From Verrucomicrobiia bacterium (GTDB lineage: Bacteria > Acidobacteriota > Terriglobia > Terriglobales > Acidobacteriaceae): a stretch of 64,000 nucleotides of DNA. Position numbers and translations under genes: made by a program. Location of the stretch: the NCBI GenBank assembly GCA_035523795.1, contig DATKQB010000113.1:999-64998 (forward strand), read 5' to 3'. Position 1 is the stretch's first letter; the number at the start of each line of letters is the position of its first letter. Shown one piece after another: positions 29,699-46,567 of this stretch. The notes under the pieces were generated by a model. It had not been told where the DNA came from. It made no database searches and saw only the letters and a program-made list of their open reading frames with translations.

Positions 29699-29803
29699 GA
29701 AATAACAGAAGCATAAGAGAAGTCGTCGGAATGATTTCCCGGCGGGCACCGTGTGTTCGTTCGCGTGGGGCGGGTCATGGAATGTGACTCAGAGGGCGAA
29801 GCT

Positions 29804-30358
29804 ATGAGCAGCGGCGTAGCACAAGCGGTACTGGCGGAAGTGGCGGCAGAAGCACTGGTGGCTCCCGCGCAATGGTACGCAATCCGAACCCGTTCTCGTC
29901 ACGAAAAGATGGTGGCGGACCAACTGGACAAGCAGGGAATCGAAAATTTTCTTCCTCTGATCAAGCGTGCGCGGCAGTGGAGTGATCGAGTGAAGGAAGT
30001 AGAACTGCCGCTGTTTGCGGGGTACACGTTCGTACATGTTGTGCTCTCCTCGCGGGACCGGCTGCGGGTTTTGCAAACGCATGGCGTGGCCGGATTTGTA
30101 GGCATCAATTGTTGCGGTACTCCGATTCCTGACAGCCAGATCCGGGACATTCAAACTCTGCTGGCCAGCAAGGAGCCATTCGAGGAGCAACCATTCCTGC
30201 GAGTGGGGCAGCGAGTGCGAGTGCGGGGCGGTGCGCTGGACGGAGTGGAAGGAATTCTCGCGGCCCGCAACGACGATCGCAGTTTAGTCATCTCCCTGGA
30301 GCCCATCCAACGATCATTGTCAGTTCGGATTCAGGGCTACACCGTTGAGCCCGTCTGA
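29804..30358 (+). CDS. NusG paralog, UpxY/RfaH-like operon-specific transcription antiterminator
   Basis: NGN domain (WYAIRTRSRHEKMVADQLDKQGIENFLPL...PLFAGYTFV) plus KOW (GQRVRVRGGALDGVEGIL). It is the first gene of a polysaccharide locus, as UpxY genes are. Confidence 0.8.
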   Translation: MSSGVAQAVLAEVAAEALVAPAQWYAIRTRSRHEKMVADQLDKQGIENFLPLIKRARQWSDRVKEVELPLFAGYTFVHVVLSSRDRLRVLQTHGVAGFVGINCCGTPIPDSQIRDIQTLLASKEPFEEQPFLRVGQRVRVRGGALDGVEGILAARNDDRSLVISLEPIQRSLSVRIQGYTVEPV

Positions 30359-30504
30359 AGTTCCCCCTGTTTCCCCTTCAACACAAGTTCCGCGAACAAA
30401 CGGCTGGCAGCACAGCATGGGCTGGCCGCGGGAACCTATTCCTCGCGGACAAATTGGACCAGGGTGTTGCAGCTCTGGCTTAAAGGAAAAAGTGAGGGTC
30501 ATTT

Positions 30505-30846
30505 ATGAACGAAGTTGATACGAAGACCGGCAAGATAAACGGAAATGGGAGCCGGGAACTGCGCGAAGATTCAGCGCAGGGCTGGGACAACGGCCAGGAA
30601 TCGCGGCGGGGAACGGTGTACGTCTCGTCGGTGGGCGAGTCGTCTCTGCGCAGCTTCCGCGATGAGGCAGAGATTCACGCCATCAGCAATGCTCTGAAGC
30701 AGACGGGCTGGAACCGCAAGCGGGCGGCGCAATTGCTGAGCATCAGCTATCGTGGCCTGCTGTACAAGATTCGGCGGCACAATATCACGCCGAACGGCAA
30801 CGGCGGCCTGAAGTCGGTGACCGAGAGCGGAGAAGTACAATCGTAG
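30505..30846 (+). CDS. stand-alone Fis-type (HTH_8) DNA-binding protein
   Basis: FRDEAEIHAISNALKQTGWNRKRAAQLLSISYRGLLYKIRRHNI matches the C-terminal DNA-binding domain of NtrC-type activators. No AAA+ or REC domain is present. Confidence 0.7.
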   Translation: MNEVDTKTGKINGNGSRELREDSAQGWDNGQESRRGTVYVSSVGESSLRSFRDEAEIHAISNALKQTGWNRKRAAQLLSISYRGLLYKIRRHNITPNGNGGLKSVTESGEVQS

Positions 30847-30874
30847 GCGTCCGCAGTGGGGAATTGAAACGACC

Positions 30875-31612
30875 ATGCGATTTTCTTCTCTAGTTCGAGG
30901 TCTGGCGGTTGGTTTAACGCTTTCGCTGTGCCTGTGCGCAGGCCAGGAAGCTGTTTCCAACCCGAAGACGAATGTGCCGGATTCCAATCCCGCCGCGGCC
31001 AATGCAGCGGGGACGAAGGATGCAGGTGCAGGCGAGGGTTTTCAGACGCGGCGCCCGCACTACCGGATTGCTCCGGGAGACTCCTTCGATCTGAATTTCG
31101 ATCTGAGTCCGGAGTTCAACCAGACAGGCGTCGTGGTGCAGCCCGACGGATATGTCACGCTGCGCGGCGTCGGCGATCTCAAGGTGCAGGGCTTGACCGT
31201 GCCAGAACTGACGGACAAGATTCACACGGCCTACGCGACGATCCTGAACGACCCAGTGGTTTCCGTGATCCTGAAGGATTTCGAGAAGCCGTACTTTATA
31301 GCGGACGGACAAGTGGGTAAGCCGGGCAAGTACGATCTGCGGGGAACGGTCACGTTGACGCAGGCGGTTGCGATCGCAGGCGGATTCACGGAAGCGTCGA
31401 AACATTCTCAAGTGGTGTTGTTCCGCAGGGTCAACGATCAGTGGACCGAAGCGCGGATATTCAATCTGAAGAAGATGGAGAAGTCGGGAAATCTGAAGGA
31501 AGATCCGACACTTCATCCCGGGGACATGCTGTTCGTGCCGAAAAATACGATGTCGAAGATCGACCACTTCATTCCCACCGCGAGTATGGGAACGTTCTTC
31601 CCAGTGCCATAA
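30875..31612 (+). CDS. polysaccharide export protein (short Wza-like: Poly_export + SLBB), copy 1
   Basis: Signal/lipoprotein-like N-terminus (LTLSLCLCAG), YRIAPGDSFDLNF, VVQPDGYVTLRGVGDLKVQGLTVPEL, ADGQVGKPGKYDL, LTQAVAIAGGF. Confidence 0.85.
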   Translation: MRFSSLVRGLAVGLTLSLCLCAGQEAVSNPKTNVPDSNPAAANAAGTKDAGAGEGFQTRRPHYRIAPGDSFDLNFDLSPEFNQTGVVVQPDGYVTLRGVGDLKVQGLTVPELTDKIHTAYATILNDPVVSVILKDFEKPYFIADGQVGKPGKYDLRGTVTLTQAVAIAGGFTEASKHSQVVLFRRVNDQWTEARIFNLKKMEKSGNLKEDPTLHPGDMLFVPKNTMSKIDHFIPTASMGTFFPVP

Positions 31613-31666
31613 GAGTTTAGCTGTGCGCGCGAAAGAAATGCTTCCCGCGCGAGAAGGTTTTGAGTA

Positions 31667-32389
31667 ATGACGATCTTTGAAAAAACCCGCACAAGTCTGC
31701 TGCTGGCTGCGCTGATATTGAGCCCATTCGCGACGGCGCAGGAGGTCAAGCCGGATCCGGCCATCAAACCTGCGGCAACGGCGCCGGGCGCGTCGGCGAA
31801 GACCGACACGCCGCAACTGCAATCGCGCGATGAACGCTACCGCGTGGCTCCCGGCGACTCGTTTGATGTGACCTTCGAATTGAGTCCCGAGTTCAATCAG
31901 ACCGGGGTGTCGATTCAACCGGATGGCTTTGTCACTCTGAAGACCGTAGGCGAAGTTTATGTGCAAGGCGAGACGGTGCCGGAATTGACGAACACGTTGC
32001 GGGCAGCCTACGGCAAGGTCCTGCATCAGCCAATCGTGACTGTAACTTTGAAGGACTTTGAGAAACCGTATTTTGTTGCGGACGGCCAGGTAGGGCGTCC
32101 GGGAAAATACGACCTGCGCGGAGACGTCACGCTGACGCAAGCCATTGCGATCGCCGGCGGATTCAAAGATGAGGCGAAGGGTTCGCAGGTGTTGCTGTTC
32201 CGTCGGGTTTCCGATGAATGGATGGAAGCGAAGATTTTCAATGTGAAGAAGATGCATAAGACCCTCAGCCTGAAAGAAGATCCAACGCTGCATCCGGGCG
32301 ACATGGTGTTTGTGCCCAAGAACGCGCTGTCGAAGATCGACAAGTTCTTCCCCTCGGCCCAGATGGGTTCGATGCTCCGTCCGAATTAG
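31667..32389 (+). CDS. polysaccharide export protein (short Wza-like), copy 2 (tandem paralog)
   Basis: Collinear with copy 1 and clearly more than half identical by eye (YRVAPGDSFDVTF, ADGQVGRPGKYDL, LTQAIAIAGGF). Confidence 0.85.
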   Translation: MTIFEKTRTSLLLAALILSPFATAQEVKPDPAIKPAATAPGASAKTDTPQLQSRDERYRVAPGDSFDVTFELSPEFNQTGVSIQPDGFVTLKTVGEVYVQGETVPELTNTLRAAYGKVLHQPIVTVTLKDFEKPYFVADGQVGRPGKYDLRGDVTLTQAIAIAGGFKDEAKGSQVLLFRRVSDEWMEAKIFNVKKMHKTLSLKEDPTLHPGDMVFVPKNALSKIDKFFPSAQMGSMLRPN

Positions 32390-32429
32390 TTTTTCGAATG
32401 TCCCAGGCAGGTGTTCGTAAGGAGAATTT

Positions 32430-33989
32430 ATGAACCAGATTCCAACCGGCAGCGGCGACCAGAATCTTGAATTCAATGTAAAAGAGCTGATCGCCATCGG
32501 ATTTCGCCACCAGCGGGCGATGCTGCTGTGCTTTATGGCCGTGTTCTGTGGCGCGGTGCTCGTCGGGCTTTTGATGCCGACCCGGTACCAGGCGCATACC
32601 AAGATCCTGATCAAGCGCGAGCGCGTCGATCCTGTGGTCAGCGCCGGGCAAAATGAGCAGGTGATGGTCAAGGACGAAGTCAGTGAAGAAGAACAGAACT
32701 CGGAAGTCGAGCTTTTGGAAAGCGACGATGTGCTGCGCCAGGTGGCGGTGAGCTGCGGCCTGGACAAGCGCGTGTCGACGCTGGGAAAGATTTTCGGGCG
32801 CGAGGACGAAGCCGGCAAGATTGCCAAGGCTGCGCAGCGGCTGCGAAGCACTCTCGTCATCGAGCCCATGAAGAAGACCAACCTGATCAGCATTACCTAT
32901 GCGTCAAGCGATCCGCAGCAAGCCGCGCAGGTGCTGAAAGTGTTGAATGATGCCTACATCAAGAAGCACGCGGAAGTGAATCGTCCGGCGGGGCAATTCA
33001 AATTTTTCGATCAGGAAGCGGAGCGGTATAAGAGCGAGTTGACTGACGCGGAAGGCCAGCTTTCGCAGTTTGCGGCCGAGCAGGGTGGAGTAGCTCCGCT
33101 GGTGGAACGCGATCAGGCCTTGCAGCGCCTGGCGGAATTTACCGCGACGCTTTCTTCGACACGCGCGGACATGGCAGCGACGGAGCAGAAGATTCGCACG
33201 CTCGAGAGCCAGTCGGGCGCGGTGCCATCGAAGATCACCACTTCGTCGACGGAGACGGATGATGCCCAAGTGTTGCAGCAGATGAAGAGCCAGTTGATGA
33301 CGCTGGAGCTGAAGCGGACGGAGTTGCTCACCAAGTACCAGCCGACGTATCCGCTGGTGAGCGAAGTCGATAAAGAGATTGCCGACACGCGGGCTTCGAT
33401 CGAAAAAGAAGAGGCCAAGCCGCTGCAACAGGTCACCACCGGGCAGAACCCGACGTATGAGTACGTCAGTACCGAACTGGCCAAGTCGAAGGCGGATTAC
33501 AGCGCATTGCAGGCGCGGGCTGTGGCAACTGAAGGCATCATTGCGCAGTACAAGAAGCAGGCGACCGATCTGGAGCGCAAGGGCATTCAGGAGCAGGACT
33601 TGCAACGAGTAATCAAGACCGACGAAGAAAACTACCTGCTGTATCAGCAAAAGCGCGAAGAAGCGCGCATGTCCGACGCCCTCGATCAAACGCATATTTT
33701 GAACGTGGCTGTGGCCGAAGCGCCGTCGGTACCCGTGCTTCCGACCGGTTCGCGACTGGTTTTTATCGTGCTCGGACTAGTTCTGGGCGCGGTGATGAGC
33801 GTAGGATTGGCGTTAGCGCTGGATTATTTCGATCCGTCGTTGCGCACACCTTCCGAGGTGCTGAGCGAGCTCAATATTCCAGTTCTGGCCGCTGTTCCGC
33901 ACCGTGTAGCGGGCGATTTCGGATCGAATTATGGCGAAGGCGAAGCAGTAGCAGCGTACTCGACGGCCGTTCCAACACAACAACAGTAA
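32430..33989 (+). CDS. polysaccharide chain-length determinant / co-polymerase (Wzz/GumC-like, no kinase domain)
   Basis: N-terminal TM with Wzz motif region, a long coiled-coil periplasmic part, and a C-terminal TM (LVFIVLGLVLGAVMSVGLALALDYF). AGGAG RBS. Confidence 0.85.
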   Translation: MNQIPTGSGDQNLEFNVKELIAIGFRHQRAMLLCFMAVFCGAVLVGLLMPTRYQAHTKILIKRERVDPVVSAGQNEQVMVKDEVSEEEQNSEVELLESDDVLRQVAVSCGLDKRVSTLGKIFGREDEAGKIAKAAQRLRSTLVIEPMKKTNLISITYASSDPQQAAQVLKVLNDAYIKKHAEVNRPAGQFKFFDQEAERYKSELTDAEGQLSQFAAEQGGVAPLVERDQALQRLAEFTATLSSTRADMAATEQKIRTLESQSGAVPSKITTSSTETDDAQVLQQMKSQLMTLELKRTELLTKYQPTYPLVSEVDKEIADTRASIEKEEAKPLQQVTTGQNPTYEYVSTELAKSKADYSALQARAVATEGIIAQYKKQATDLERKGIQEQDLQRVIKTDEENYLLYQQKREEARMSDALDQTHILNVAVAEAPSVPVLPTGSRLVFIVLGLVLGAVMSVGLALALDYFDPSLRTPSEVLSELNIPVLAAVPHRVAGDFGSNYGEGEAVAAYSTAVPTQQQ

Positions 33990-34001
33990 GGACCCTCCAT
34001 C

Positions 34002-35048
34002 ATGTTTTTGGAATATTACGGATTTCGGGAACAACCATTCGGGGTGACTCCCGATCCGCGCTTTCTTTACCTGAGCCCGGCACACCGCGAGGCGCTGGCT
34101 TCTCTCTATTACGGAATTGAGTCGGGCCGCGGCTTTCTGGCACTGATCGCGAAGCCAGGGATGGGCAAGACCACGCTCTTGTTTCATCTGCTGGAGAAGT
34201 TCCGCCACAATGCCCGCACTGCGTTCCTGTTCCAAACGCAATGCAGTTCGCGCGAGTTCATGCGTTTTCTGCTGGCGGAATTGGGCGTCGAGAGTTACGA
34301 CCAGGACTTCGTGCGCATGCACGAAGAATTCAACAAGATGCTGCTGCAGGAGGCGCGTGCCGGGCGGCGTTTCATCGTGGTGGTAGACGAAGCGCAGAAC
34401 CTGGATTCGAGCGTACTGGAGACGGTTCGGCTGCTGTCGGATTTCGAAACGCCGCGGGCGAAGCTGGTGCAGATCATTCTGGCCGGCCAGCCGGAATTGG
34501 CCGACAAACTGGCCAGCAAGCACTTGGCGCAGTTACGGCAGCGCGTGTCGCTACTGAACCGGCTGACGCCGCTCTCTATCGATGAGACCAAAAAGTATGT
34601 CGATCACCGGCTGAAGGTCGTGGGCCATTCCGGAGCACCATTGTTTACGCCGGAAGCGCTGGTGGCCATCGCGCGCTTCACCGAAGGCATTCCGCGCAAC
34701 ATCAATAACTTCTGTTTCAATGTGCTTTCGCTGAGTTGTGCCGTGCGGCAGAAAGTCGTGGATCTGGCGCTGGTCGAAGAAGTGATCGGAGATCTCGACA
34801 TCAGCCAGCACGTGACCGAGGTTGCTCCCCAGCGAGCCATCGATTTTCAGGAAATTGCTTCGATGATGGCGGGGAATCCGGCGAATGGGCGTGCTCCGGC
34901 TCCGGCTACCGATCGCGTGGAATCGCTGACCCCAGCCGAGGCCCGAGCCTACATGCAGCAGCTCTCAGGACAGTTAAAAGATTGGCAACACACGCTGGAT
35001 CGCATGGCGCCACACCGCTCGAGTGCGCGCGTGAAACGTGAAGGATAG
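34002..35048 (+). CDS. ExeA-like AAA ATPase (type found in PEP-CTERM/EPS loci)
   Basis: YYGFREQPFGVTPDPRFLYLSPAHREAL...IAKPGMGKTTLL (Walker A)...FIVVVDEAQNL (Walker B). Confidence 0.8.
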   Translation: MFLEYYGFREQPFGVTPDPRFLYLSPAHREALASLYYGIESGRGFLALIAKPGMGKTTLLFHLLEKFRHNARTAFLFQTQCSSREFMRFLLAELGVESYDQDFVRMHEEFNKMLLQEARAGRRFIVVVDEAQNLDSSVLETVRLLSDFETPRAKLVQIILAGQPELADKLASKHLAQLRQRVSLLNRLTPLSIDETKKYVDHRLKVVGHSGAPLFTPEALVAIARFTEGIPRNINNFCFNVLSLSCAVRQKVVDLALVEEVIGDLDISQHVTEVAPQRAIDFQEIASMMAGNPANGRAPAPATDRVESLTPAEARAYMQQLSGQLKDWQHTLDRMAPHRSSARVKREG

Positions 35049-35088
35049 TTCGAGAGAGTCGAAAATCGTCAGGCACTGACAGGACAAT

Positions 35089-35919
35089 ATGAGCCGTAAC
35101 TTCGAACTTCTACAGAACATCGGCAAAGACCAAGACTATTTCCAGCCGGACCGTGTACTGACGGAGCCGGTACCCGCGCCGGCCGAACCGCTTCCCGACA
35201 AGCTGGTCGAGGCGCTGGAGGCCGCGACCGCCAATGCTGAGCCGGTGCCGGCAGACGTCGTCAGCGCGGAGCCGCTGCAGCTCAACTTCGAACCTGCGCA
35301 ACTGGCGGAGCTTTCGAAGTTGGTGCAACGCGTGTTCTTGCTGCCGGGCGGCGAGTACAACCACACAGTGGTGTTTACCGCCAGCGATTCCGGCAATGGC
35401 TGCAGCTGGATTACGGCGCGAGTCGGCGAACTATTGGCCAATCAAGTGACGGGGCGGGTTTGCGTGGTGGACGCGAACCTGCAGAATCCCACGCTGCACG
35501 AACAGTTTGGAGTAGCGAATCATCACGGGCTGGCGGATGCGTTGCGGTTGTCGGGCTCGATCCGCGGATATGTGAGCCAGCTTTCGCGGCGCAATCTGGC
35601 GCTGCTGAGTTGCGGATCGGATCTGCGCGAAGGACAAAACCTCGTGACTTCCGATCGCATGCGGGCCCGCATGCTGGAGCTGCGGTCGGAGTTCGACTAC
35701 ATCCTGATTGATTGCCCGTCGGTCAGCTCGAGCAACGAAGCGCTCTCGGTGGGATCGATTGCGGATGGCGTCGTTCTGGTATTGAAGGCCAACTCAACCC
35801 GCAAAGACCGCGCGCGTAGCGCGGTGCATGATCTGCAGACCGCCAACGTCAAGATTCTCGGAGCGGTTCTGAATCAGCGGACGTTCCCGATACCGGATTC
35901 GATTTACAGCAAGCTGTAA
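35089..35919 (+). CDS. BY-kinase-like (CpsD/CapB/MinD-fold) protein with degenerate Walker A
   Basis: TASDSGNGCSWI aligns to the S-x-P-G-E-G-K-S-T Walker A, with Lys replaced by Cys. Walker A' is VVDANLQNP (canonical D-x-D-L-R) and Walker B is ILIDCPS. There is no C-terminal Tyr cluster. Confidence 0.75.
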   Translation: MSRNFELLQNIGKDQDYFQPDRVLTEPVPAPAEPLPDKLVEALEAATANAEPVPADVVSAEPLQLNFEPAQLAELSKLVQRVFLLPGGEYNHTVVFTASDSGNGCSWITARVGELLANQVTGRVCVVDANLQNPTLHEQFGVANHHGLADALRLSGSIRGYVSQLSRRNLALLSCGSDLREGQNLVTSDRMRARMLELRSEFDYILIDCPSVSSSNEALSVGSIADGVVLVLKANSTRKDRARSAVHDLQTANVKILGAVLNQRTFPIPDSIYSKL

Positions 35920-35934: not shown

Positions 35935-35972
35935 CCCACGTCTCGGAATAGCGGGGAGACATGGGGCATGCC
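35935..35972. repeat. small hairpin repeat, family A (second copy) plus a partial upstream copy at 35920-35931
   Basis: cccacgtctcggaatagcggggagacatggggcatgcc, with a 10-bp stem containing one mismatch. tggggcatgcc occurs twice (35921 and 35962) and GGCATGCC is itself palindromic. Confidence 0.55.
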
Positions 35973-36011
35973 ACCTAGATACCCGAAGTTAGAGAATCTC
36001 CCAAATTCATC

Positions 36012-36644
36012 ATGTTTGAGAATCTGATCGCTGACCTGCGCGCTTCCCAGGAAGACCGCGTACTTGAAAAGAGTATGGGTTTGTGGCGCGTGTTGTTTCG
36101 CATGGAGACGCCGGCGATCGTATGCTACCGGTTTGGGCACTGGGTCGAACATGTGAACGTGCCGGTGGTGAGTTTCATTCTGCGAATCGTGGCGGGAGTT
36201 TTCCAACGGTTGGTGCAGATGCTCATCGGGATTTACATATCGCCGGACGCCGAGATCGGACCGGGGTTGGTCATTCACACGCCGTTCGGAATTATCGTTG
36301 GACCGAATAAGATCGGGTCGCATTGCACGATCCAAAGCGGAGTGGTGCTGGCGGCGGGAACGCGCGGCATCGGCGACAACGTCTATTTCGGGGCGGGCGC
36401 CAAGGTGATGGGCGGAGCGAAGATTGGCAATAACGTTGTGGTGGCGGCGAACAGCCTGGTGCTGACGGATGTTCCGGACAATATGACTGTCATCGGCGTG
36501 CCGGCCAGAATCCGCATTCCGGGCGGACGGCCGAAGCGATTTAAGTGGAATACGGTGAAGCCGCAGAACGGGAATGCTGCGATGGCACCGACGAATGGCA
36601 ATCAGCAGGTCGTGAAGCAGCCGGAAACAGCAGGGAAGAATTAA
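36012..36644 (+). CDS. hexapeptide-repeat O-acetyltransferase (serine acetyltransferase-like)
   Basis: Left-handed beta-helix repeats: IGPGLVIHTPFGIIVGPNKIGSHCTIQSGVVL...IGDNVYFGAGAKVMGGAKIGNNVVVAANSLV. Confidence 0.8.
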   Translation: MFENLIADLRASQEDRVLEKSMGLWRVLFRMETPAIVCYRFGHWVEHVNVPVVSFILRIVAGVFQRLVQMLIGIYISPDAEIGPGLVIHTPFGIIVGPNKIGSHCTIQSGVVLAAGTRGIGDNVYFGAGAKVMGGAKIGNNVVVAANSLVLTDVPDNMTVIGVPARIRIPGGRPKRFKWNTVKPQNGNAAMAPTNGNQQVVKQPETAGKN

Positions 36645-36666
36645 AGAAGCGAGCCAAACGCGCGAC

Positions 36667-36754
36667 TTTGCATTCGCGCAAAGAACGCGTGAATGATCGC
36701 GCGGCTCGCCCAGATCCTTCACAGCGCAAAAGGCACGCTGCTCAGGATGACAAC
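36667..36754 (+). repeat. two-hairpin intergenic repeat, family B, copy 1
   Basis: Aligns with 45201-45287. The shared core is atcgcgcggctcgYccagatccttc...caaaaRg...tcaggatgacaa. The stems differ by compensatory changes. Confidence 0.7.
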
Positions 36755-36813
36755 ACTTCTTAATTGTAAATTCATAGCTAGGAATTTATAGGCAGGAGAA
36801 AGCGGGGCGGACC

Positions 36814-37959
36814 TTGGATTTTGCATGGAGTGAGGAACAACAGGACTTCCGCAAGGAAGTTGTTCGATTCGCGAAGCAGGAGCTGACGTGCGACATGATC
36901 GCCAACGATCATGACGAGAAGTTTTGCCGGGATTGCTGGAATAAATGCGCGCAGTTTGGCATTCATGGTTTGCCAATTCCCGCCGAATATGGCGGCGGCG
37001 GCGCGGACACGCTCACGACGGTTTGCGGATTGGAAGCGCTCGGTTACGGCAGCCACGATAACGGACTTATTTTTTCAATCAATGCGCACATGTGGAGCTC
37101 GGAGATTCCGATTCTTTCTTTCGGAACGGAAGCGCAGAAAAAGAAATATCTGCCTAAGCTGGTCAGCGGCGAATGGGTAGGAGTGCATGCGATGACTGAG
37201 CCGATGTCCGGCTCGGACGCTTACAGCCTTCGCACCCGCTATGAGCGTAAGGGTGACCGCGTCATTCTGAATGGATCGAAGACATTTATTACGAATGGCC
37301 CGTATGCGGACATGGTAATCGTGTTTGCGACGGAGGATCCGGCGAAGGGGCCGGCGGGAATTTCGGCGTTTATCGTGGAGAAGGGAACGCCGGGCTTTGA
37401 AATCAGCCGCAAGCTGCACAAGATGGGACTGCGTACTTCGCCGATGGCGGAATTAGCGTTCGTGGATTGCGAAGTGCCGGCGGAGAATCAGCTGGGGAAA
37501 GATGGCGCGGGCCCGGCGATTTTCACCGCCTCGATGGAATGGGAGCGCATCTGCATCCTGGCGAGTCATCTTGGCGTGATGCAGCGGCTGCTGGAAACAT
37601 CCGTCGCTTATGCGCGCGCGCGCAAGCAGTTTGGAGAGAACATCGGAAAGTTTCCGGCGGTTTCGGCGAAGATTGCCGACATGGAAGTGCGGCTCGAAAC
37701 CGGGCGGCTGGTGCTGTACAAAGCGGCGTGGATGAAGAGCCAGGGCAAGCATCCGCTGCGCGAAGCGGCGATTGCAAAGACGTACGTGGCTGATGCCTGC
37801 ATCCAGAGTTGCATGGATGCGATCCAGATTCATGGCGGCTACGGATACATGACCGAGTTTCAGATCGAGCGCGAGTTGCGCGACGCGATCTCGGGAAAAA
37901 TTTACTCAGGCACTACGGAAATTCAGAAGATGATTATTTCCGGATTGCATGGTTTGTGA
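36814..37959 (+). CDS. acyl-CoA dehydrogenase family flavoprotein (probably acting on a carrier-protein-bound substrate)
   Basis: ACAD N/M/C domains (MDFAWSEEQQDF..., TEPMSGSDA, GGYGY). The MCAD-type catalytic Glu in Y-E-G is replaced, giving IYSGTTEIQ. An alternative Glu sits in MEWERICIL. TTG start. Confidence 0.85.
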   Translation: MDFAWSEEQQDFRKEVVRFAKQELTCDMIANDHDEKFCRDCWNKCAQFGIHGLPIPAEYGGGGADTLTTVCGLEALGYGSHDNGLIFSINAHMWSSEIPILSFGTEAQKKKYLPKLVSGEWVGVHAMTEPMSGSDAYSLRTRYERKGDRVILNGSKTFITNGPYADMVIVFATEDPAKGPAGISAFIVEKGTPGFEISRKLHKMGLRTSPMAELAFVDCEVPAENQLGKDGAGPAIFTASMEWERICILASHLGVMQRLLETSVAYARARKQFGENIGKFPAVSAKIADMEVRLETGRLVLYKAAWMKSQGKHPLREAAIAKTYVADACIQSCMDAIQIHGGYGYMTEFQIERELRDAISGKIYSGTTEIQKMIISGLHGL

Positions 37960-38074
37960 TTTTCGACAGAAGTTTTTATGTTGCCGTAATTGTTCTTCGA
38001 TAAAGTTGTTTCAAAGTAAGTTCTAGCTCACCCCCCAACAATTCAATCGCGAACACAAGGGGTAAAGAACTCTC

Positions 38075-39682
38075 GTGGCATACATCCTTCAGCAACTTCT
38101 CACGCGCAGTGCGGCGAAGTATCCGGAAAAGACAGCAGTTTGGGCCCGAAAGCGCAGTCTGACGTATCGCGAGCTGGATCAGCGATCGACGCAGCTGGCG
38201 CATCTTCTGCGGCGGCGTGGATTGAAGAAGGGCGACCGCGTTGGACTGTTTTCTCCTAAGTGCGTGGAGTCGCTGGTATGCATGTTTGGGGTGCTGAAGG
38301 CGGGTGGCGTGTATGTGCCGCTCGATCCGCAGGCTCCAGCCGATCGCATCGGATACATCATCGCGAATTGCGGCATTCGGGTGCTGCTCACTAATAAGGA
38401 GCGGCGCTCGGCGCTGGCTGCGGAGACAATTGCGTCGCTCGATTATTGCGTGATGACCGATGATTCCGGCTCGAACGGCTCGGGCAATAAGATCGTGCCG
38501 TGGACGATGCTGGGCGAATTTCCGGGGGATTGCGCACCGGAAGTGGTGATGACCGAGACCGACCTGGCCTACATCCTGTACACATCGGGTTCAACCGGGC
38601 GGCCGAAGGGCGTGATGCTGTCGCATCAGAATGCGCTGACCTTCGTGGAATGGTGCGCAGAGAAGTTCCAAGTCACGAGCGAAGACCGGTTATCGAATCA
38701 CGCGCCGCTGCACTTCGATCTTTCGGTTTTCGATGTGTACAACGCAATGGAAGCGGGCGCGACGGTTTATCTTGTCACGGAAGATCTGGCGCTGTTTCCC
38801 ACGACGCTGGCCAGCTTTATTGAGACGCAGAAGATCACGATCTGGTACTCGGTTCCGTCGGCGCTGATGCTGCTTCTGCTGCACGCGAAGATGGAGGCGG
38901 AGAAGCTGCCGCATCTGCGGACGATTTTGTTCGCCGGGGAAGTATTCCCGATGAAATATCTGCGTCAGCTGGCCGATTTGCTTCCGAACACCGAACTCTA
39001 CAACCTCTACGGACCAACCGAGACCAACGTCTGCACGTACTATCGCGTCGAGCGCGAGCGGTTGGCGGGAATGGACAAGCTGCCGATCGGCATCGCGTGC
39101 GAGAACACGGAAGTATTCGCAGTCAATGATCAGGATCAGGTTGTGACCAAGCCAGGCGAAAGCGGCGAGTTGTATGTCCGCGGACCGGCGGTGACTTATG
39201 GATATTGGGCGGACGTGGAAAAAACGAGAAAGATGGTCGTGCCCAACCGATTCCAGCCAAACTTCAACGAGAACATGTACCGCACCGGCGATTTGGTGAC
39301 ACTGGCCGAGGACGGCAATTACTACTTCCAGGGCCGCCGCGATAGCCAGATCAAGAGCCGCGGGTACCGCATTGAGTTGGGAGAGATCGAGAGCGCGCTG
39401 CTGAGCCATGCGGGCGTGCGCGAGGCCGCCGCGGTGGCGATCCCGGACGATCTGATTGGCAACCGCATCAAGGCAATTGTCGCGCCGCACGCAGGCGAGG
39501 AGTTGCGCATTGCAGATTTGCAGCAGTTCTGCTCCACGCGCATTCCGAAATACATGATTCCCGAGCAGATCGAGTTCATGGAGATTCTGCCCAAGACTTC
39601 GACGGGCAAGATCGATCGCGTGCGCCTGGCCCAGGCAAGTATTGAGGCGGCGAAGCAGGTGGCGGAAGTCGTCCGAAATTGA
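38075..39682 (+). CDS. stand-alone adenylation enzyme (DltA / aminoacyl-AMP ligase-like)
   Basis: A3 LAYILYTSGSTGRPKGV, A4 HFDLSVFD, A5 NLYGPTE, A7 YRTGD, A8 GRRDSQIKSRGYRIELGEIE, A10 PKTSTGKIDR. No C or T domain. Confidence 0.9.
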   Translation: MAYILQQLLTRSAAKYPEKTAVWARKRSLTYRELDQRSTQLAHLLRRRGLKKGDRVGLFSPKCVESLVCMFGVLKAGGVYVPLDPQAPADRIGYIIANCGIRVLLTNKERRSALAAETIASLDYCVMTDDSGSNGSGNKIVPWTMLGEFPGDCAPEVVMTETDLAYILYTSGSTGRPKGVMLSHQNALTFVEWCAEKFQVTSEDRLSNHAPLHFDLSVFDVYNAMEAGATVYLVTEDLALFPTTLASFIETQKITIWYSVPSALMLLLLHAKMEAEKLPHLRTILFAGEVFPMKYLRQLADLLPNTELYNLYGPTETNVCTYYRVERERLAGMDKLPIGIACENTEVFAVNDQDQVVTKPGESGELYVRGPAVTYGYWADVEKTRKMVVPNRFQPNFNENMYRTGDLVTLAEDGNYYFQGRRDSQIKSRGYRIELGEIESALLSHAGVREAAAVAIPDDLIGNRIKAIVAPHAGEELRIADLQQFCSTRIPKYMIPEQIEFMEILPKTSTGKIDRVRLAQASIEAAKQVAEVVRN

Positions 39683-39783
39683 AGCGCAGGATCTTGCAAG
39701 AAACAGACGATGAAGGCGAGCGGCCGCGCGCTTTAGAGAAGAAGCAAAGAAAGATCCCATTCCAACAGGAGAACTAAAATTTC

Positions 39784-40047
39784 ATGGCAACGGAGACGGC
39801 ATCGGTAAAAGATCAGATTCGCGAATTCATTCTGCGCGACCTCGCCAGCGCAAAGGGCGTCAGTTCGTTTACTGACAGCGAATCGCTGATGGAAAGCGGC
39901 GTGATTGATTCCCTCGGAATTTTTCGCCTGGTGGCGTTCCTGGAAGAAACGTTTCGCGTGCGCATTGGAGATGAAGAGATCACCCACGACAACCTCAAGA
40001 GCGTGGACTCCATTGAGCAGATGGTGAGCAACAAACTCAAGAAGTAA
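39784..40047 (+). CDS. acyl/peptidyl carrier protein
   Basis: 87 aa with the GVIDSLGIFRLVAFLEE phosphopantetheine Ser motif. Confidence 0.9.
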   Translation: MATETASVKDQIREFILRDLASAKGVSSFTDSESLMESGVIDSLGIFRLVAFLEETFRVRIGDEEITHDNLKSVDSIEQMVSNKLKK

Positions 40048-40129
40048 TCTCGCTTCCCCAGCCGGGCGCTGCCCCCACCGCCCTGATTCTCCATGTTCGA
40101 CCTAAGTAGGTAATTTGGAGGGACTCCCA

Positions 40130-41566
40130 GTGGGTACGATTCGGCGTCAAGTACTGCTGAATTTGTTGAAGGTGTTTGACCTGGTACTGATGGTGTTTGC
40201 TTTTGGTCTGGCCACGGTCGTTGTGTCGCATGCTTCGATGGCGTCGCTGAGAGATGTTCTGGCGATGCGGATCAAAGTTGCGAACTTCCTGATATTTTCC
40301 GGGCTGCTGTTCAGCTGGCATCTGATTTTTTCGATGTGCGGCATGTATGCCTCGCACCGGTTATCGAGCCGTCGGGATGAAATTCTGGATCTGGCGAAGG
40401 CCATCTCCCTCGGGACAATACTCATTTATCTCGGCCACCGTCTCTTTCATATTTCACTGGTCAAGCCGGAGTTTATTGCGGCGTTTTGGGCAGCGGCTAT
40501 TCTTGCCGGAAGCTTCAGCCGCCTTGGTCTGCGCGTGTTTTTGGCGCAGGTTCGAATTCACGGGCGCAACCTTCGCAATATGCTGATTGTGGGCACGAAT
40601 GCCCGTGGGCTGCAGTTCGCAAAGAAGATGAAAGAGAGTCCGGCGCTGGGCTACCGCGTGCTCGGTTTTGTCGACTACGACCGGCCGCATGCCGCCGATG
40701 TGTCAGGCTCAGGGTTCGAGCGGGTTGTGGACTTCGCGGGGTTACCAGCCTATCTGCGCAAGAGCGTCGTCGATGAAGTGGTGATCGCGCTGCCGATGCG
40801 CTCGATGCACGCCGAAGCCACAGAAATCGCGGAGTTGTGCGAACAGCATGGAATCTTAATTCGCTTTGCATCGACGCTGTTCGATCTGAAGCTGGCGCGC
40901 AAGCGCGTGGAAGAGATCGAGGGTGACTCGCTGATCACGCATTACACGGGCAGCCTGGAGGGTTGGCCGGTAGTGGTCAAGCGCATCATCGATATCGTTG
41001 CTTCGGCGATCATGTTGGTTTTCCTGTCGCCGATTTTGCTGATTGCAGCCTTGCTCATCAAGCTGACTTCACCGGGACCGGTGATGTTTGTGCAACAGCG
41101 GCTGGGACTGGGAAAGCGGCATTTCGGAATTTACAAATTCCGCACCATGGTGATTGATGCGGAGAAGCGGATGAAGGAGATCGAACACCTGAATGAAGTC
41201 AGCGGCCCAGTATTCAAGATCAAGAACGATCCGCGCATCACACCGGTGGGCAAGTTTCTACGCAAAACCAGCATCGACGAACTGCCACAATTGCTGAATG
41301 TTCTGAAGGGCGATATGAGCCTGGTCGGCCCGCGGCCCTTGCCGATTCGCGACTATGAAGGATTCAGCGAGGATTGGCAGCGGCGGCGGTTCAGTGTAAA
41401 GCCGGGAATCACTTGCTTGTGGCAGATCGGCGGGCGCAGCGGGATTTCATTCGAGAAGTGGATGGAGTTGGATCTGCAGTACATCGATAAGTGGTCGTTG
41501 TGGCTCGATCTGGAAATTCTGCTGAAAACGATTCCGGCCGTGTTGAGGGGATCGGGAGCGGCCTAA
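40130..41566 (+). CDS. polyprenyl-phosphate glycosyl-1-phosphate transferase (WcaJ/WbaP-type priming sugar transferase)
   Basis: N-terminal TM helices, a central Rossmann-like domain and a C-terminal bacterial sugar transferase domain ([21 protein letters not shown]...[42 protein letters not shown]). GTG 40130 follows GGAGGGA; the track start is TTG 40115. Confidence 0.9.
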
Positions 41567-41933: not shown

Positions 41934-43001
41934 ATGGGAACGGAAGTAAAGAAAAAGGGTTGGTTCTGGCGGGGTTTTGCATGGTTCATTGCCATCTGCA
42001 TCGGGTTCGAACTGGTGCTCCGCCTGTTTGGGTTCGGCAATTACACCATCTATCGCCCGGACGAAAAGCTGTTGTGGGTTCCGGTGCCGGGACGCACGGT
42101 AACGGTTGACAATCATCAACCGATCACGATCAATCACCAGGGGCTGCGCTATGCCAGCGATTTGACCACGAAGTCGAAAGGCGAGTTTCGCGTGATGGCC
42201 TTTGGCGATTCGGCGACCCAGGGTTGGGGCGTGGACGACAAATCAACGTACGCGGCGTTTCTGGGGGACATGCTGAATGCGAGCAGTTGCCCCGGCGAAC
42301 ATTTTTTGTCGGTGTCGGCCGGAGTGAATGCCTATCCTAATGCGCTGGTGGGCGAGAAGCTGAAGGAAGTGGAAGAGGATCCGACGTTCCAGCCGGACAT
42401 CGTGATTCGCGCCTACAGCTTCAATTCGAACTTTGAGCGCTTGCCAAAGCTGCAAGGTGCGGCGCGCGAGAAATTTCTGCGGCAGGTGGAATTCAAATCG
42501 ATCATCCGGCGCAGCGCGATTTACAACTTCGTGATTGAAGACCTGCTGCGACGCGCGGTTTACTACCGCATGCGGCACATGTTGATGGCGGGTACGCTCG
42601 ACACGGTCGGCGGCATGGATAATCTCGATGTCAACGCCGTGACCGAAAGCCTGCAGCAGAGCCTGGATGAGACTCGTGCGCACAATGCACAGCTGGTTTT
42701 GCTCGTTCTCGCCAGCAAAGATCAGAAGGCGAACGACCTGCATCCGTTTCAGAAGGCGATGCTGGATTTCGCGGCTGCGAACCACGTTCCAGTCGTGAAC
42801 ATGGTGGATGTGCTGAATGGCAATGCGCCGGCCAATTTCTACATGGATCCAGTGCACCCCACGGCATCTGGGCACAAGATCATCGCGCAGCAGCTCTACA
42901 ACTTGATCCGCACTCTCCCAGTCTATGAAGCCGCATGCCAGCAGTCAGCGGTGAACGTAGCAAATTCCGCCGTAACTCCCTCCAGCGCGGCGGCACATTA
43001 A
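41934..43001 (+). CDS. SGNH/GDSL hydrolase family protein (membrane-anchored)
   Basis: Block I is VMAFGDSATQGWG and block V is DPVHPTASGH. N-terminal TM (WFWRGFAWFIAICIGFELVL). ATG 41934 is preferred because the track start lies inside the hairpin repeat. Confidence 0.8.
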   Translation: MGTEVKKKGWFWRGFAWFIAICIGFELVLRLFGFGNYTIYRPDEKLLWVPVPGRTVTVDNHQPITINHQGLRYASDLTTKSKGEFRVMAFGDSATQGWGVDDKSTYAAFLGDMLNASSCPGEHFLSVSAGVNAYPNALVGEKLKEVEEDPTFQPDIVIRAYSFNSNFERLPKLQGAAREKFLRQVEFKSIIRRSAIYNFVIEDLLRRAVYYRMRHMLMAGTLDTVGGMDNLDVNAVTESLQQSLDETRAHNAQLVLLVLASKDQKANDLHPFQKAMLDFAAANHVPVVNMVDVLNGNAPANFYMDPVHPTASGHKIIAQQLYNLIRTLPVYEAACQQSAVNVANSAVTPSSAAAH

Positions 43002-43373: not shown

Positions 43374-45152
43374 ATGTACATACTCGGAATCAGTTGTTAC
43401 TACCACGATGCCGCAGCCGTTCTGCTGGATGACGGCGTGTTGGTGGCGGCGGCGGAAGAAGAGCGCTTCACGCGCAAGAAGCACGACTTCGACTTCCCGA
43501 AGAATGCGATCAAGTTCTGCCTGGAGCAGGCGGGAATCACGGGGCATGATCTCGATTACGTAGTCTTCTTCGAGAAGCCCTTCCGCAAACTCGACCGCAT
43601 CCTGATGATGACACTGCAGACCTATCCGAAATCTTACAAGGTGTTTCGCGAGTCGATGATTACCTGGATGGTCGACAAGCTCTGGGTCGCCTCGAAGATT
43701 GAGAGCGAAGTTGGCGTCGACTACAACAAGATTCTGTTCAGCGAGCATCATCTTTCGCATGCTGCCAGTGCCTATTTCTGCTCGCCGTTCGAGGAGTCGG
43801 CAATTTTGACTGTGGACGGCGTCGGTGAATGGGTAACGTCGACCTATGGCGTGGGCAAGGGAAATGAAATTAAGATTCAGAAGCAGTTGGAATTCCCGCA
43901 CTCGCTCGGCTTGCTTTATTCGGCATTCACCGCGTTTCTCGGCTTCGAGGTGAATGAAGGCGAGTACAAGGTGATGGGCATGGCGCCCTATGGCGAGCCC
44001 AAGTACGTGGACAAGGTATGGAAGGTGATTCAGCAGAATCGTGACGGCTCGTTCTCGCTCGACATGAGTTATTTCAGCTTCCATCACTCAACCGAGCGGA
44101 CTTACAACGAGAAGTTTGCGGCTCTTTTCGGCGAGCCTCGGCCGGAGAAGATGCTGTTCTTCACGGAAGAGACGGGCTTTCCCAAATATTTTGGGGCACC
44201 TCCGTCGAACATGGCCGAGCTATCGAAGTTGAACAAGCACTATGCCGACATCGCCGCCAGCATTCAGAAGGTAACCGAAGACGTGCTGGTAGGTATGGCA
44301 AAGCATTTGCGGCAGACAACTGGCATGAAGAATTTGTGCATGGCGGGCGGCGTCGCGCTCAATTGCGTGGCCAACACGCGCATCCTGCACGAAGCTGGTT
44401 TTGAGAAGATGTATGTACAACCGGCTGCGGGCGATGGCGGCGGTGCTTTGGGTGCAGCATTGTGGGCATATAACACTCTGCTAGGGAAACCACGCACGTT
44501 CCATATGGAGCATGCCTATTGGGGGCGCGCGAACTCGGACTCCGAAATTGGAGACTTCCTCAAGGCGAACGGCATCAAGCACACTCGCTACGACGACGAG
44601 GACAAACTGCTCGATGCCGTGGTGAATCGATTGACTCAGGAGAATGTGATTGGATGGGCGCAAGGCCGATTCGAGTGGGGGCCGCGCGCGCTGGGAAGCC
44701 GCTCGATTCTGGCCGATCCGCGCAATCCAAACATGAAGGACATCGTCAACACGAAGATCAAATTCCGCGAGCCATATCGTCCGTTTGCGCCGTCGGTGCT
44801 GGCGCAGGCTGCGGAGAAATACTTTGATCTGCCCGATGCAGCCAAACATGATCCCGCGCGCTACATGCTCTACGTGGTTCCGGTGAAGCCGGAGGCGCAT
44901 GCGACCTTGCCTGCAATTACGCACGTGGATGGCACGGGCCGCTTGCAGACAGTGTTCAAAGAGCAGAGCCCACGGTATTACAAGATGATCGAGAAGTTCG
45001 GGCAGGCGACTGGCGTGCCGGTGGTGATGAACACGTCTTTCAATTTGAAGGGCGAGCCGATCGTCAACACTCCGGCCAACGCTCACAACACGTTCATCAA
45101 GAGCGAAATGGACGCGCTGGTGCTGGAGAACTTCATCATCGAGAAGAACTGA
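43374..45152 (+). CDS. carbamoyltransferase (NodU/CmcH/SxtI family)
   Basis: MYILGISCYYHDAAAVLLDDGVLVAAAEEERFTRKKHD, a Kae1/YrdC-like architecture, and C-terminal NTSFNLKGEPIV. AGGAG RBS. Confidence 0.93.
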   Translation: MYILGISCYYHDAAAVLLDDGVLVAAAEEERFTRKKHDFDFPKNAIKFCLEQAGITGHDLDYVVFFEKPFRKLDRILMMTLQTYPKSYKVFRESMITWMVDKLWVASKIESEVGVDYNKILFSEHHLSHAASAYFCSPFEESAILTVDGVGEWVTSTYGVGKGNEIKIQKQLEFPHSLGLLYSAFTAFLGFEVNEGEYKVMGMAPYGEPKYVDKVWKVIQQNRDGSFSLDMSYFSFHHSTERTYNEKFAALFGEPRPEKMLFFTEETGFPKYFGAPPSNMAELSKLNKHYADIAASIQKVTEDVLVGMAKHLRQTTGMKNLCMAGGVALNCVANTRILHEAGFEKMYVQPAAGDGGGALGAALWAYNTLLGKPRTFHMEHAYWGRANSDSEIGDFLKANGIKHTRYDDEDKLLDAVVNRLTQENVIGWAQGRFEWGPRALGSRSILADPRNPNMKDIVNTKIKFREPYRPFAPSVLAQAAEKYFDLPDAAKHDPARYMLYVVPVKPEAHATLPAITHVDGTGRLQTVFKEQSPRYYKMIEKFGQATGVPVVMNTSFNLKGEPIVNTPANAHNTFIKSEMDALVLENFIIEKN

Positions 45153-45319: not shown

Positions 45320-46567
45320 ATGGTTACAGCGATTGCACCGGCTGCCGTGAAGGTGGCGAGTCTCAGCGTGTTGTGCGTGCACAACCGCTACATCCAGCCA
45401 GGCGGCGAAGACCAGGTCTTTGAGTCGGAGTCGCGGCTGCTGGCAGAGAACGGCGTTCGGGTGCATAAGGTTGAAGAGCAGACCACGTATCCGAGCGGCT
45501 TGGTGCGGAAAATCGGAGCGGCGGTCGATTGCGTCTGGTCGCGCAGCTGGCATCAGAAGTTCAAAACGATTTTGCGCGATGTCCAGCCGGATGTAGTTCA
45601 CATCCACAACTTTTTCTCGGTGATCTCGCCTTCGATTTATTACGCGTGCAGGGAAGAAGGCGTGCCGGTGGTGCAGACGCTGCATAATTACCGGCTGGCG
45701 TGTCCGGCGGCGAGCTTCTATCGCGACGGAAAGATTTGCGAAGAGTGCATTGATCGCGGTCCATTTCACGCGGTGGGATATGGCTGCTATCGCGAATCGA
45801 AGCTGGCGACCGCGGCCTTGGCGGCGATGCTTGAATTTCATCGCACGCGGGAAACCTGGTCCGAGATGGTGGACTGCTACGTGGCGCTCACGGAATTTGC
45901 GCGGCAGAAAATGATACAAGGCGGCCTGCCGGCAGAGAAAATTGTGGTCAAGCCGAATTTTGTTCTTCCCGATCCCGGGCCACGGGCCTTCGACGGCGAA
46001 TATGCGTTGTTCGTCGGACGGCTGGTTGATTTGAAGGGAATCGGCACGCTGATCAAGGCGTGGTCTAAGCTTTCAGCACCGATTCCGCTGGTGATTGCCG
46101 GGGATGGACCATTCCGTCCGGAGATGGAGAAGCTGATCGCCGATCTGAAGCTATCGAATATCGATTATCGCGGACGCCTTTCGCGACAGGATACTTTGGC
46201 CGCGATGAGAGGCGCCCGCTTTTTGATATTTCCCAGCGAATGGTACGAAGGATTTCCGGTAACGATCGCGGAATCCTTCGCGTGTGGCGTTCCCGTGCTC
46301 TGCTCGCGGCTGGGCGGAATGCAGGAGATTGTGGAAGACGGCCGCACGGGTCTGCACTTCAATCCCGGCGATGTCGCGGACATTGCGGAGAAAGTTCAAT
46401 GGGCATGGCTAAATGAAAAGGAAACCCGCGCGATGGGAATGGCTGCACGCGCCGAATTTGAGTTGAAGTACAGCGCCGACAGAAATTTTGGGATGCTCAC
46501 TGAAATCTACGAGAACGTCATTGCTCGTACGAAAGGAGTCCGGGTTTCCCATGTCCACTCGTCTTGA
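45320..46567 (+). CDS. glycosyltransferase family 4 (GT-B, retaining)
   Basis: VLCVHNRYIQPGGED N-terminal domain and the E-x7-E motif region FPSEWYEGFPVTIAESFACGVPV. Confidence 0.9.
   Translation: MVTAIAPAAVKVASLSVLCVHNRYIQPGGEDQVFESESRLLAENGVRVHKVEEQTTYPSGLVRKIGAAVDCVWSRSWHQKFKTILRDVQPDVVHIHNFFSVISPSIYYACREEGVPVVQTLHNYRLACPAASFYRDGKICEECIDRGPFHAVGYGCYRESKLATAALAAMLEFHRTRETWSEMVDCYVALTEFARQKMIQGGLPAEKIVVKPNFVLPDPGPRAFDGEYALFVGRLVDLKGIGTLIKAWSKLSAPIPLVIAGDGPFRPEMEKLIADLKLSNIDYRGRLSRQDTLAAMRGARFLIFPSEWYEGFPVTIAESFACGVPVLCSRLGGMQEIVEDGRTGLHFNPGDVADIAEKVQWAWLNEKETRAMGMAARAEFELKYSADRNFGMLTEIYENVIARTKGVRVSHVHSS

Follow-up and report, generated by a model that had tools for sequence, protein, structure and literature searches.

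Two described pathways come closest to the locus reported here. In the anatoxin-a cluster of Oscillatoria PCC 6506, AnaC, AnaD and AnaB yield (S)-pyrroline-5-carboxyl-AnaD, proline being oxidised once it has been placed on a free-standing carrier protein (PMC3252866), and in the second pathway, that of pyoluteorin, PltF, PltL and PltE, followed by PltA, yield dichloropyrrolyl-S-PltL (PMC5395296). The RedM/O/W, PigI/G/A, Bmp and CloN3-5 sets are related to the latter. We describe a stretch of 64,000 nucleotides (contig DATKQB010000113.1, positions 999 to 64,998; hereafter the window) from a metagenome-derived genome of the Terriglobia (Acidobacteriota), in which an exopolysaccharide (EPS) locus contains a triad of genes that encode a flavin dehydrogenase, a free-standing adenylase and a carrier protein of 87 aa, the same gene order and the same logic as in AnaB, AnaC and AnaD. 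The residues and relationships of the three proteins support a reading of the triad as a cassette that would convert a prolyl-S-carrier protein to its dehydroprolyl or pyrrolyl form. Taken as a whole, the best explanation in our view is that this type II proline cassette and the adjoining gene, for a hexapeptide-repeat acyltransferase, form a unit of four genes and that the unit acylates a sugar of the EPS, a reading to which we assign a probability of roughly 60%. The genes of the unit and the gene that follows it are these:

36012..36644, + strand: hexapeptide-repeat (left-handed beta-helix) acyltransferase of the serine-acetyltransferase/EpsC/WcaB type, 210 aa, with Pfam Hexapep
36814..37959, + strand: predicted FAD-dependent L-prolyl-S-carrier-protein dehydrogenase/oxidase of the acyl-CoA dehydrogenase (ACAD) fold, 381 aa, TTG start, best PDB match AnaB
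38075..39682, + strand: stand-alone adenylation enzyme, predicted to be specific for L-proline, 535 aa, TIGR01733, with a PltF-like pocket
39784..40047, + strand: type II carrier protein, 87 aa, PP-binding, with the phosphopantetheine serine Ser43 in GVIDSLGIF
40130..41566 (open reading frame also from 40115), + strand: priming polyprenyl glycosylphosphotransferase of the EPS pathway (Bac_transf 240 bits; TIGR03025 427 bits against a cut-off of 296), start taken from the gene call

The three open reading frames (ORFs) of the triad are separated by gaps of about 100-115 nt, and the gene for the priming glycosyltransferase stands directly downstream of the carrier-protein gene. A preliminary description of this DNA, made from its letters and ORF translations, had proposed this gene order, its position upstream of a priming glycosyltransferase and its resemblance to the prolyl cassettes. 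All three proposals stand: the ORFs are in place and carry the expected domains, the downstream gene passes its family model, and the ACAD, the adenylase and the carrier protein each support the cassette separately. The same three gene models were also called independently on metagenome contigs of identical sequence. A terminator scan of 29400-48500 gave no convincing intergenic terminator inside the unit, and promoter-like matches over the same region were fewer than in shuffled sequence.

The flavoenzyme has the three-domain ACAD fold, with Pfam Acyl-CoA_dh_N, _M and _1 at full length (E 4e-27 to 5e-42), and aligns end to end with its best PDB match, the prolyl-ACP dehydrogenase AnaB (4IRN; 480.9 bits, 54% identity). 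The next matches are 6cxt (317 bits), a generic ACAD (305) and the L-prolyl-PCP dehydrogenase PigA (297), identity being about 40% to PigA and 6cxt and 43-44% to generic ACADs. Among the NCBIfam models, RedW (413.6 bits) and PigA (411.9) rank at the top, with acryloyl-CoA reductase (341) and all other acyl-CoA enzymes behind them. It had been noted in the preliminary description that the catalytic Glu of the medium-chain ACAD (MCAD) type is missing and that a Glu is kept in MEWERICIL, and both remarks proved right. In IYSGTTEIQ, which begins at residue 363, a Ser takes the place of the MCAD-type Glu, as it does in AnaB, PigA and 6cxt, and Glu244, the second Glu of MEWER in the motif beginning at residue 241, aligns with the same Glu of these three enzymes. 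Trp-Glu244 and Ser-Gly-Thr are thus common to the window ACAD, AnaB, PigA and 6cxt, whereas the generic ACADs 5lnx and 5ol2 have Gly-Arg and Glu-Gly-Thr (YEGT) at those positions. In AnaB, Glu244 is reportedly the catalytic base. Glu242, Glu244 and the SGT of the YSGT motif are identical in all 88 ACAD orthologues that were aligned. A neighbour-joining (NJ) tree with five reference sequences, calculated without bootstrap and not including PltE, RedW and CloN3, placed the acidobacterial clade as sister to AnaB, followed by PigA with 6cxt, and left the two generic ACADs outside; in this small tree the clade groups with AnaB and not with acyl-CoA dehydrogenases.

The adenylase consists of AMP-binding (E 8e-96) and AMP-binding_C domains, carries no condensation (C) or thiolation (T) domain, and contains Lys517, the K of its GKID motif. 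It passes the amino-acid adenylation model TIGR01733 with 397.8 bits against a cut-off of 317.4. Its best single-domain PDB match is PltF (6o6e; 365.7 bits, the next single adenylation (A) domain reaching 281), which is an L-proline-[L-prolyl-carrier-protein] ligase. With the full-length protein the alignments displayed were those of two-domain LgrA; a pocket fragment of 144 aa ranked PltF at the top, with a gap-free alignment of 123.5 bits, against 88 for the proline ligase 7thn and at most 85 for DltA. Read from gap-free HMMER alignments, with the ten Stachelhaus positions placed relative to GrsA, the codes are DLFYLALVCK in the window, DLLYLALVCK in PltF and DLFYIAWVCK in 7thn, so that the window adenylase shares 9/10 positions with PltF and 8/10 with the proline ligase 7thn. 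The code is the one derived by hand in the preliminary description, where it had been left unassigned; through its alignment with PltF and 7thn we read it as a predicted type II proline code. It is identical in 83 of the 84 adenylase orthologues, and a full-text literature search for the ten residues and their variants returned no match.

The FDLSV A4 motif, pointed out earlier as common to DltA, is likewise present. An alternative reading of the triad is an ordinary acyl or D-alanyl chemistry, in which a fatty-acid or D-Ala ligase and an acyl carrier protein (ACP), comparable to Dlt or to the exosortase-A-associated ligase, would be accompanied by a genuine acyl-CoA dehydrogenase with free acyl-CoA as its substrate. 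Scores of the adenylase on the DltA (341 bits), TIGR03098 (365 bits) and fatty-acid CoA ligase models would suit this alternative, as would the identity of the ACAD to generic ACADs; however, all of these adenylase scores fall below the family cut-offs while the amino-acid adenylation model is passed, and the pocket differs from that of DltA at six of the nine positions read (239, 278, 299, 301, 322 and 331). The absence of the MCAD-type Glu and the presence of the AnaB-type Glu244 in 88/88 orthologues speak against it as well, and Pfam scans, which covered the window ORFs from 14818 to 63301, detected no DltB- or DltD-like gene. We consider such chemistry very improbable, and the Dlt-like or fatty-acyl reading was rejected on the pocket, the cut-offs, Glu244 and the lack of DltB and DltD among these ORFs.

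The carrier protein matches PP-binding with 21.4 bits, just above the cut-off of 20.8, and has the DSLG serine at residue 43. Its PDB matches are modest: the peptidyl carrier protein (PCP) 2my5 with 33.9 bits, PltL with 30.1, the Bmp1 ACP with 25.5 and PigG with 24.4. The Bmp1 ACP is the carrier-protein chain with which 6cxt was crystallised (6cxt_A). PltL, PigG and the Bmp1 ACP thus stand among its best matches, as PltF does for the adenylase pocket, and the D-S motif is kept in all 80 carrier-protein orthologues recovered.

In the ana cluster the polyketide synthases (PKS) AnaE-G accompany the three genes, whereas glycosyltransferases, a carbamoyltransferase and nonribosomal peptide synthetases (NRPS) lie downstream in the window, and no ketosynthase (KS) domain was found in the window proteins scanned with Pfam. 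The setting also differs in being an EPS locus of the Acidobacteriota, in the constant hexapeptide-repeat partner and in the pyrrole-type halogenases of relatives. Neither a PKS nor a CloN2/CloN7-type transferase nor bipyrrole machinery was detected at the locus. Judged by its gene content, the locus is not a cluster of the ana, plt or dlt type.

To see how constant these associations are, relatives were taken from a scan of one genome per species, in which 288 genomes encode a relative of the ACAD. The 80 best of these, with ACAD identities of 69-92%, form the sample of loci (L numbers below designate related loci); all but two of these best matches, which are labelled Dormiibacterota, carry an Acidobacteriota label, and close homologues are labelled Candidatus Acidiferrales, Terriglobales, Terriglobia and Sulfotelmatobacter. 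Neighbours were counted by mapping the window proteins with tblastn onto the 62 species-level loci among them that have full 10-kb flanks. The adenylase and the carrier protein each lie within 10 kb of the ACAD in 60/62 loci, EPS export genes within 10 kb of the cassette in 57/62 and the priming transferase within 10 kb of the ACAD in 46/62. The most constant neighbour is the acyltransferase, which adjoins the triad in 58 of the 62. It stays beside the triad where the priming transferase has moved to the other side (L008, L019, L021, L060), and in L034 and L036 it stands after the carrier-protein gene and not before the ACAD. In L006 the order acyltransferase-ACAD-adenylase-carrier protein is followed by ATP synthase genes, with no glycosyltransferase or NRPS nearby. 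We therefore propose that the triad and the acyltransferase form a four-gene functional unit, and on these gene neighbourhoods the unit is a hallmark of Terriglobia EPS loci.

The preliminary description had recommended looking near the locus for an acyltransferase that unloads the carrier protein. A candidate does exist directly upstream of the ACAD gene, where it had been missed; because of its gene linkage we regard it as the best candidate for this role, and the off-loading itself is our inference from that linkage. The NRPS further downstream and the PltA-type halogenases of relatives, both described below, had been missed as well.

The unit is found in other arrangements as well. On one contig (contig_110812, 303,184 bp) it is split across a single EPS locus, with the ACAD and the adenylase at the head (L017) and the acyltransferase and the carrier protein at the tail, about 12 kb further (L092). 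Second sets, marked by acyltransferase homologues of 63-66% identity, lie at the far end of similar EPS/NRPS loci; their order is acyltransferase-ACAD-ACAD-carrier protein in L089 (8001-12539) and acyltransferase-ACAD-halogenase-halogenase-ACAD-carrier protein in L090 (8001-15704), and neither these two nor the set of L092 (8001-10226) has an adjacent adenylase. Each second set is followed by a protein of 370-410 aa that matches nothing in Pfam and lacks a homologue in the window. The window acyltransferase reaches its 63-66% identity with such far-end copies in distant genomes, and only 47-52% with triad-adjacent copies from loci where the ACAD is about 72% identical, a pattern that suggests exchange between the triad-adjacent and the far-end sets. 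The adenylase of L006 (11251-12820) was called as two ORFs of 103 and 345 aa, which could reflect a frameshift, a pseudogene or an assembly error.

In the route that we propose, the adenylase would activate L-proline and load it as a thioester onto the holo form of the 87-aa carrier protein, and the ACAD-fold flavoenzyme would oxidise the tethered prolyl group with Glu244 as the base. The product would most likely be pyrrole-2-carboxyl-S-carrier protein, formed by removal of four electrons, and at the minimum (S)-pyrroline-5-carboxyl-S-carrier protein, the two-electron product, as with AnaB. The hexapeptide-repeat acyltransferase would then use the acyl-S-carrier protein as its donor, comparable to the left-handed beta-helix enzymes LpxA and LpxD, and would transfer the acyl group to a hydroxyl or amino group of an EPS sugar, present either as a nucleotide sugar or in the lipid-linked repeat unit. 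Some relatives would halogenate the pyrrole beforehand by means of a PltA-type halogenase.

Several points weigh against this route. With its identity of about 40% to PigA and 6cxt the window ACAD stays below the equivalog cut-offs of both RedW (NF045652, 650 bits) and PigA (NF053553, 500 bits), so that it should not be taken as an equivalog of either. The best PDB match of the acyltransferase is a serine acetyltransferase, a CoA-dependent enzyme, and this match is weak (55 bits). More generally, CoA-dependent serine and sugar acetyltransferases score 55-90 bits on this protein, all of them below cut-off, including EpsC with 90 and CysE with 84 bits among the NCBIfam models, and the LpxA and LpxD models a weak 24-37 bits. 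Nothing in the acyltransferase sequence indicates a carrier-protein donor, and the protein could be a plain EPS O-acetyltransferase that only shares synteny with the triad. Our literature searches found no polysaccharide with a pyrrole-2-carboxyl or dehydroprolyl group, and neither the cassette nor a bacterial polysaccharide bearing a proline-derived heterocyclic acyl group was described in the literature searched, of which the coverage is incomplete, so that this absence is no proof of novelty.

The extent of the oxidation is a further difficulty, as AnaB, the closest characterised relative, stops at two electrons and tblastn detected no halogenase anywhere in the window. If the ACAD were AnaB-like, it would perform a single two-electron oxidation and the transferred group would be (S)-1-pyrroline-5-carboxyl, not pyrrole-2-carboxyl. 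The higher identity to AnaB (54% vs 40% for PigA and 6cxt), the joining of the clade with AnaB in the tree and the lack of a halogenase in the window are all consistent with this alternative, and the tandem ACAD paralogues of L089 and L090 could mean that one enzyme serves each oxidation. On the other hand, FADH2-dependent halogenases lie beside the cassette in 9/80 related loci:

L026, 7742-9058: halogenase
L027, 1890-3206: halogenase
L035, 7931-9247: halogenase
L033, 5595-6926: halogenase
L084, L086, L087, L045 and L047: further halogenase loci

These enzymes were classed by PDB search, NCBIfam having no specific model for PltA-type halogenases; the two that were checked, from L087 and L026, score 555-585 bits to PltA, 5buk and ChlB4 and at most 152 bits to everything else. 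The halogenase gene precedes acyltransferase-ACAD-adenylase-carrier protein in L026, L027 and L035 and follows the same four genes in L033, and the ACADs of these four loci are nested inside the acidobacterial clade in the NJ tree, which puts PltA-type halogenases in the same operon as ACADs of the clade. PltA-type halogenases act on aromatic acyl-S-carrier proteins, and their presence beside the cassette in relatives favours full oxidation to the pyrrolyl-S-carrier protein. A cyclic imine thioester would in addition be unusually labile for a surface polymer. From this context in relatives we favour pyrrole-2-carboxyl-S-carrier protein as the product, and regard an oxidation that halts at two electrons as less likely, though a serious alternative. 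Two tandem halogenase copies are present in L084, L086, L087 and L045, and an aldehyde dehydrogenase is encoded near the cassette in L084, L087 and L045.

The destination of the acyl group is less straightforward, as an NRPS, beginning 6.4 kb downstream of the cassette, is embedded in the polysaccharide locus (46488-56950) and offers a rival destination:

46488..48365, + strand: stand-alone NRPS A-T didomain (AMP-binding and PP-binding), code DAWSLGNVVK
48365..56950, + strand: NRPS of 2861 aa with the Pfam domain order P450-C-A-T-C-A-T-TE (TE, thioesterase)

The two adenylation codes that follow that of the didomain are DSALIAEVWK and DIEIIGTVIK. The P450 at the N-terminus of the 2861-aa protein retains its haem Cys motif, FGYAAHFCFG; in the PDB it matches BioI best, a P450 whose substrate is bound to an ACP as acyl-ACP.

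The main rival to our proposal is that the cassette makes a starter or capping unit for this NRPS, a C domain condensing pyrrolyl- or dehydroprolyl-S-carrier protein with an amino acid and the TE domain releasing the product; the hexapeptide-repeat transferase would then be an unrelated O-acetyltransferase, and the product may or may not reach the polysaccharide. NRPS genes are indeed close to the cassette, within 10 kb, in 47/62 loci, and in L008, L019, L021 and L060 the carrier-protein gene directly precedes A-T and P450-C-A-T-TE. In L038 (5770-9954), a full C-A-T-TE protein without a loading module stands directly upstream of ACAD, adenylase and carrier protein, replacing the acyltransferase, and hand-over of the acyl group to a C domain is plausible in some lineages, at least in this one. 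Known pathways, moreover, commonly hand pyrrolyl-S-carrier proteins to assembly lines, as to PltBC (PMC5395296) and AnaE (PMC3252866). Yet the four-gene unit occurs with no NRPS within 10 kb in 13 of the 62 loci (L006, L022-L035), and it is constant while the number of NRPS modules among relatives varies from 0 to 3, as in L008 (13169-20463), which has A-T plus P450-C-A-T-TE, and L061 (14733-17990), which has a truncated C followed by A-T-TE. By domain count, no C domain is left for an extra carrier either: the two C domains of the window are taken up by A-T, T1 and T2, the single one of L008 by A-T and T1, and loci of the L061 type have only the truncated C before A-T-TE. In L035 the EPS export operon is transcribed divergently from the halogenase and the four-gene unit that face it, and neither a PKS nor an NRPS lies within 8 kb, which leaves the acyltransferase as the only candidate off-loader there. 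Such units without an NRPS nearby, together with the near-universal linkage to export genes, argue for delivery to the polysaccharide pathway, and we hold the NRPS to be the less likely destination. An oxidised aminoacyl decoration on the glycan, as suggested in the preliminary description, fits the conserved linkage to EPS export, and its transfer to the glycan would be carried out by the acyltransferase.

Beyond the four-gene unit and the priming transferase, the EPS locus of the window comprises these features:

29753..35919, + strand: head of the EPS locus, with a NusG paralogue, a Fis-type helix-turn-helix (HTH) protein, two Poly_export/SLBB proteins, a Wzz-type chain-length determinant, a PEP-CTERM-type AAA ATPase and a tyrosine autokinase
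41934..43001, + strand: GDSL/SGNH acylhydrolase-family protein (Lipase_GDSL_2, 51 bits), an alternative acyl transferase candidate
43374..45152, + strand: carbamoyltransferase of the NodU/CmcH type (Carbam_trans_N 297 bits, Carbam_trans_C 235 bits)

To our knowledge, esterification of a sugar hydroxyl with a pyrrole-2-carboxyl group made on a carrier protein is established only for the noviose of clorobiocin and coumermycin (CloN1-N7), and the analogous position of novobiocin is carbamoylated. The window resembles this case in also encoding a carbamoyltransferase. It differs in that no equivalents of CloN1, CloN2 or CloN7 were identified, although no sequences were compared with the Clo proteins, and the proposed transferase is a hexapeptide-repeat protein, and the acceptor would be the repeat unit of a polymer, not an aminocoumarin glycoside. 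The preliminary description had drawn the same parallel. The carbamoyltransferase is indeed encoded, with a score on the NodU model (146 bits) far below cut-off, but its link to the cassette is weak, as it lies within 10 kb in only 12/62 relatives. The GDSL protein lies within 10 kb of the cassette in 10/62, and with these counts both proteins were rejected as obligatory partners of the cassette.

A second comparison is with a more distant relative of the adenylase, TIGR03098, the exosortase-A-associated acyl-CoA ligase, an adenylate-forming ligase known by genome context from PEP-CTERM-type EPS loci. On this model the window adenylase reaches 365.2 bits, and PEP-CTERM models are also matched by the export, chain-length and ATPase genes nearby; the adenylase score is, however, well short of the cut-off of 592.35, the neighbours also score below cut-off, and no exosortase was detected among the window ORFs scanned (14818-63301). 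TIGR03098 is annotated as a hypothetical equivalog, and we found no ACAD partner described for it. The Dlt system (DltA/DltC), which D-alanylates teichoic acids, is similar in its general principle: aminoacyl groups reach a polymer of the cell surface by way of a stand-alone adenylase, with the FDLSV A4 motif in common, and a small carrier protein. It differs from the window in its pocket residues, the DltA models being below cut-off, and in that an oxidising flavoenzyme is integral to the window cassette; neither an MBOAT (DltB) nor a DltD domain was found among the window genes scanned.

Terriglobia are among the most abundant bacteria of soil and peat, and acidobacterial EPS is thought to be relevant to soil aggregation and desiccation tolerance, with the chemistry of the polymers barely known. 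The recurrence of the cassette in relatives suggests an undescribed chemical decoration of the slime layer, and the prediction that follows is a proline-derived heterocyclic acyl group on the EPS, halogenated in some lineages. In its most specific form, Terriglobia would acylate their main EPS or its lipid-linked repeat unit with a carrier-made pyrrole-2-carboxyl group by way of the hexapeptide-repeat acyltransferase, with halogenation in some lineages, a tentative proposal that we hold to be less likely than not. If it is true, glycans would gain a previously unknown kind of decoration, and type II prolyl cassettes a new way of being off-loaded; in many species the decoration would occur together with short peptides made by NRPS and with carbamoylation and sulfation of that polymer. 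The acyltransferase is a candidate for a new class of acyl-carrier-protein-dependent hexapeptide transferases. For natural-product enzymology, the acidobacterial ACADs form a sister clade to AnaB that is large and cleanly delimited, and the natural set of variants, with single ACADs, tandem ACADs and the presence or absence of halogenases, could be used to ask what stops the flavoenzyme at two as opposed to four electrons.

Several neighbours of the unit show associations of their own. The NusG paralogue and the small Fis-type HTH protein (29753-30846) head the locus, are kept as a pair in most relatives and have the look of antitermination and regulatory proteins dedicated to a long EPS operon. 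Between the priming transferase and the NRPS genes, a DUF5989 protein (59 aa), the GDSL protein, a 112-aa unknown protein and the carbamoyltransferase lie together (41653-45152). The GDSL protein relocates as a block with the carbamoyltransferase, and jointly with the 112-aa protein, in L056 and L088 and partly in L036 and L038, independently of the proline cassette.

Other genes bear on the composition of the polymer. A sulfotransferase is encoded at 60105-60926, with counterparts within 10 kb in 12/62 relatives, and a fused ATP sulfurylase/APS kinase lies near the cassette in L045 (17488-19248); this gene content suggests that the EPS polymer may be sulfated. A UDP-glucose/GDP-mannose dehydrogenase and a NAD-dependent epimerase/dehydratase on the - strand (20150-22575), 7 kb upstream of the locus head, likely supply uronic-acid precursors. 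In L035 a UDP-glucose dehydrogenase flanks the export genes.

Just upstream of the locus, at 26140-29484, a protein of 1114 aa with ASH, DUF1573 and Cep192-like Ig domains is encoded, and a 504-aa protein paralogous to part of it lies inside the locus at 58533-60047. A 516-aa relative in L089 matches both regions at 36-39% identity, and proteins like this pair flank the locus in many relatives. The 504-aa protein and a protein of 537 aa, both downstream of the NRPS, have no NCBIfam or Pfam match. The longest ORF of the latter (56791-58404) shares 160 nt with the 3' end of the NRPS gene, and because of this overlap its true start is probably further downstream; its homologues in relatives, for example in L061 and L066, come after the TE domain.

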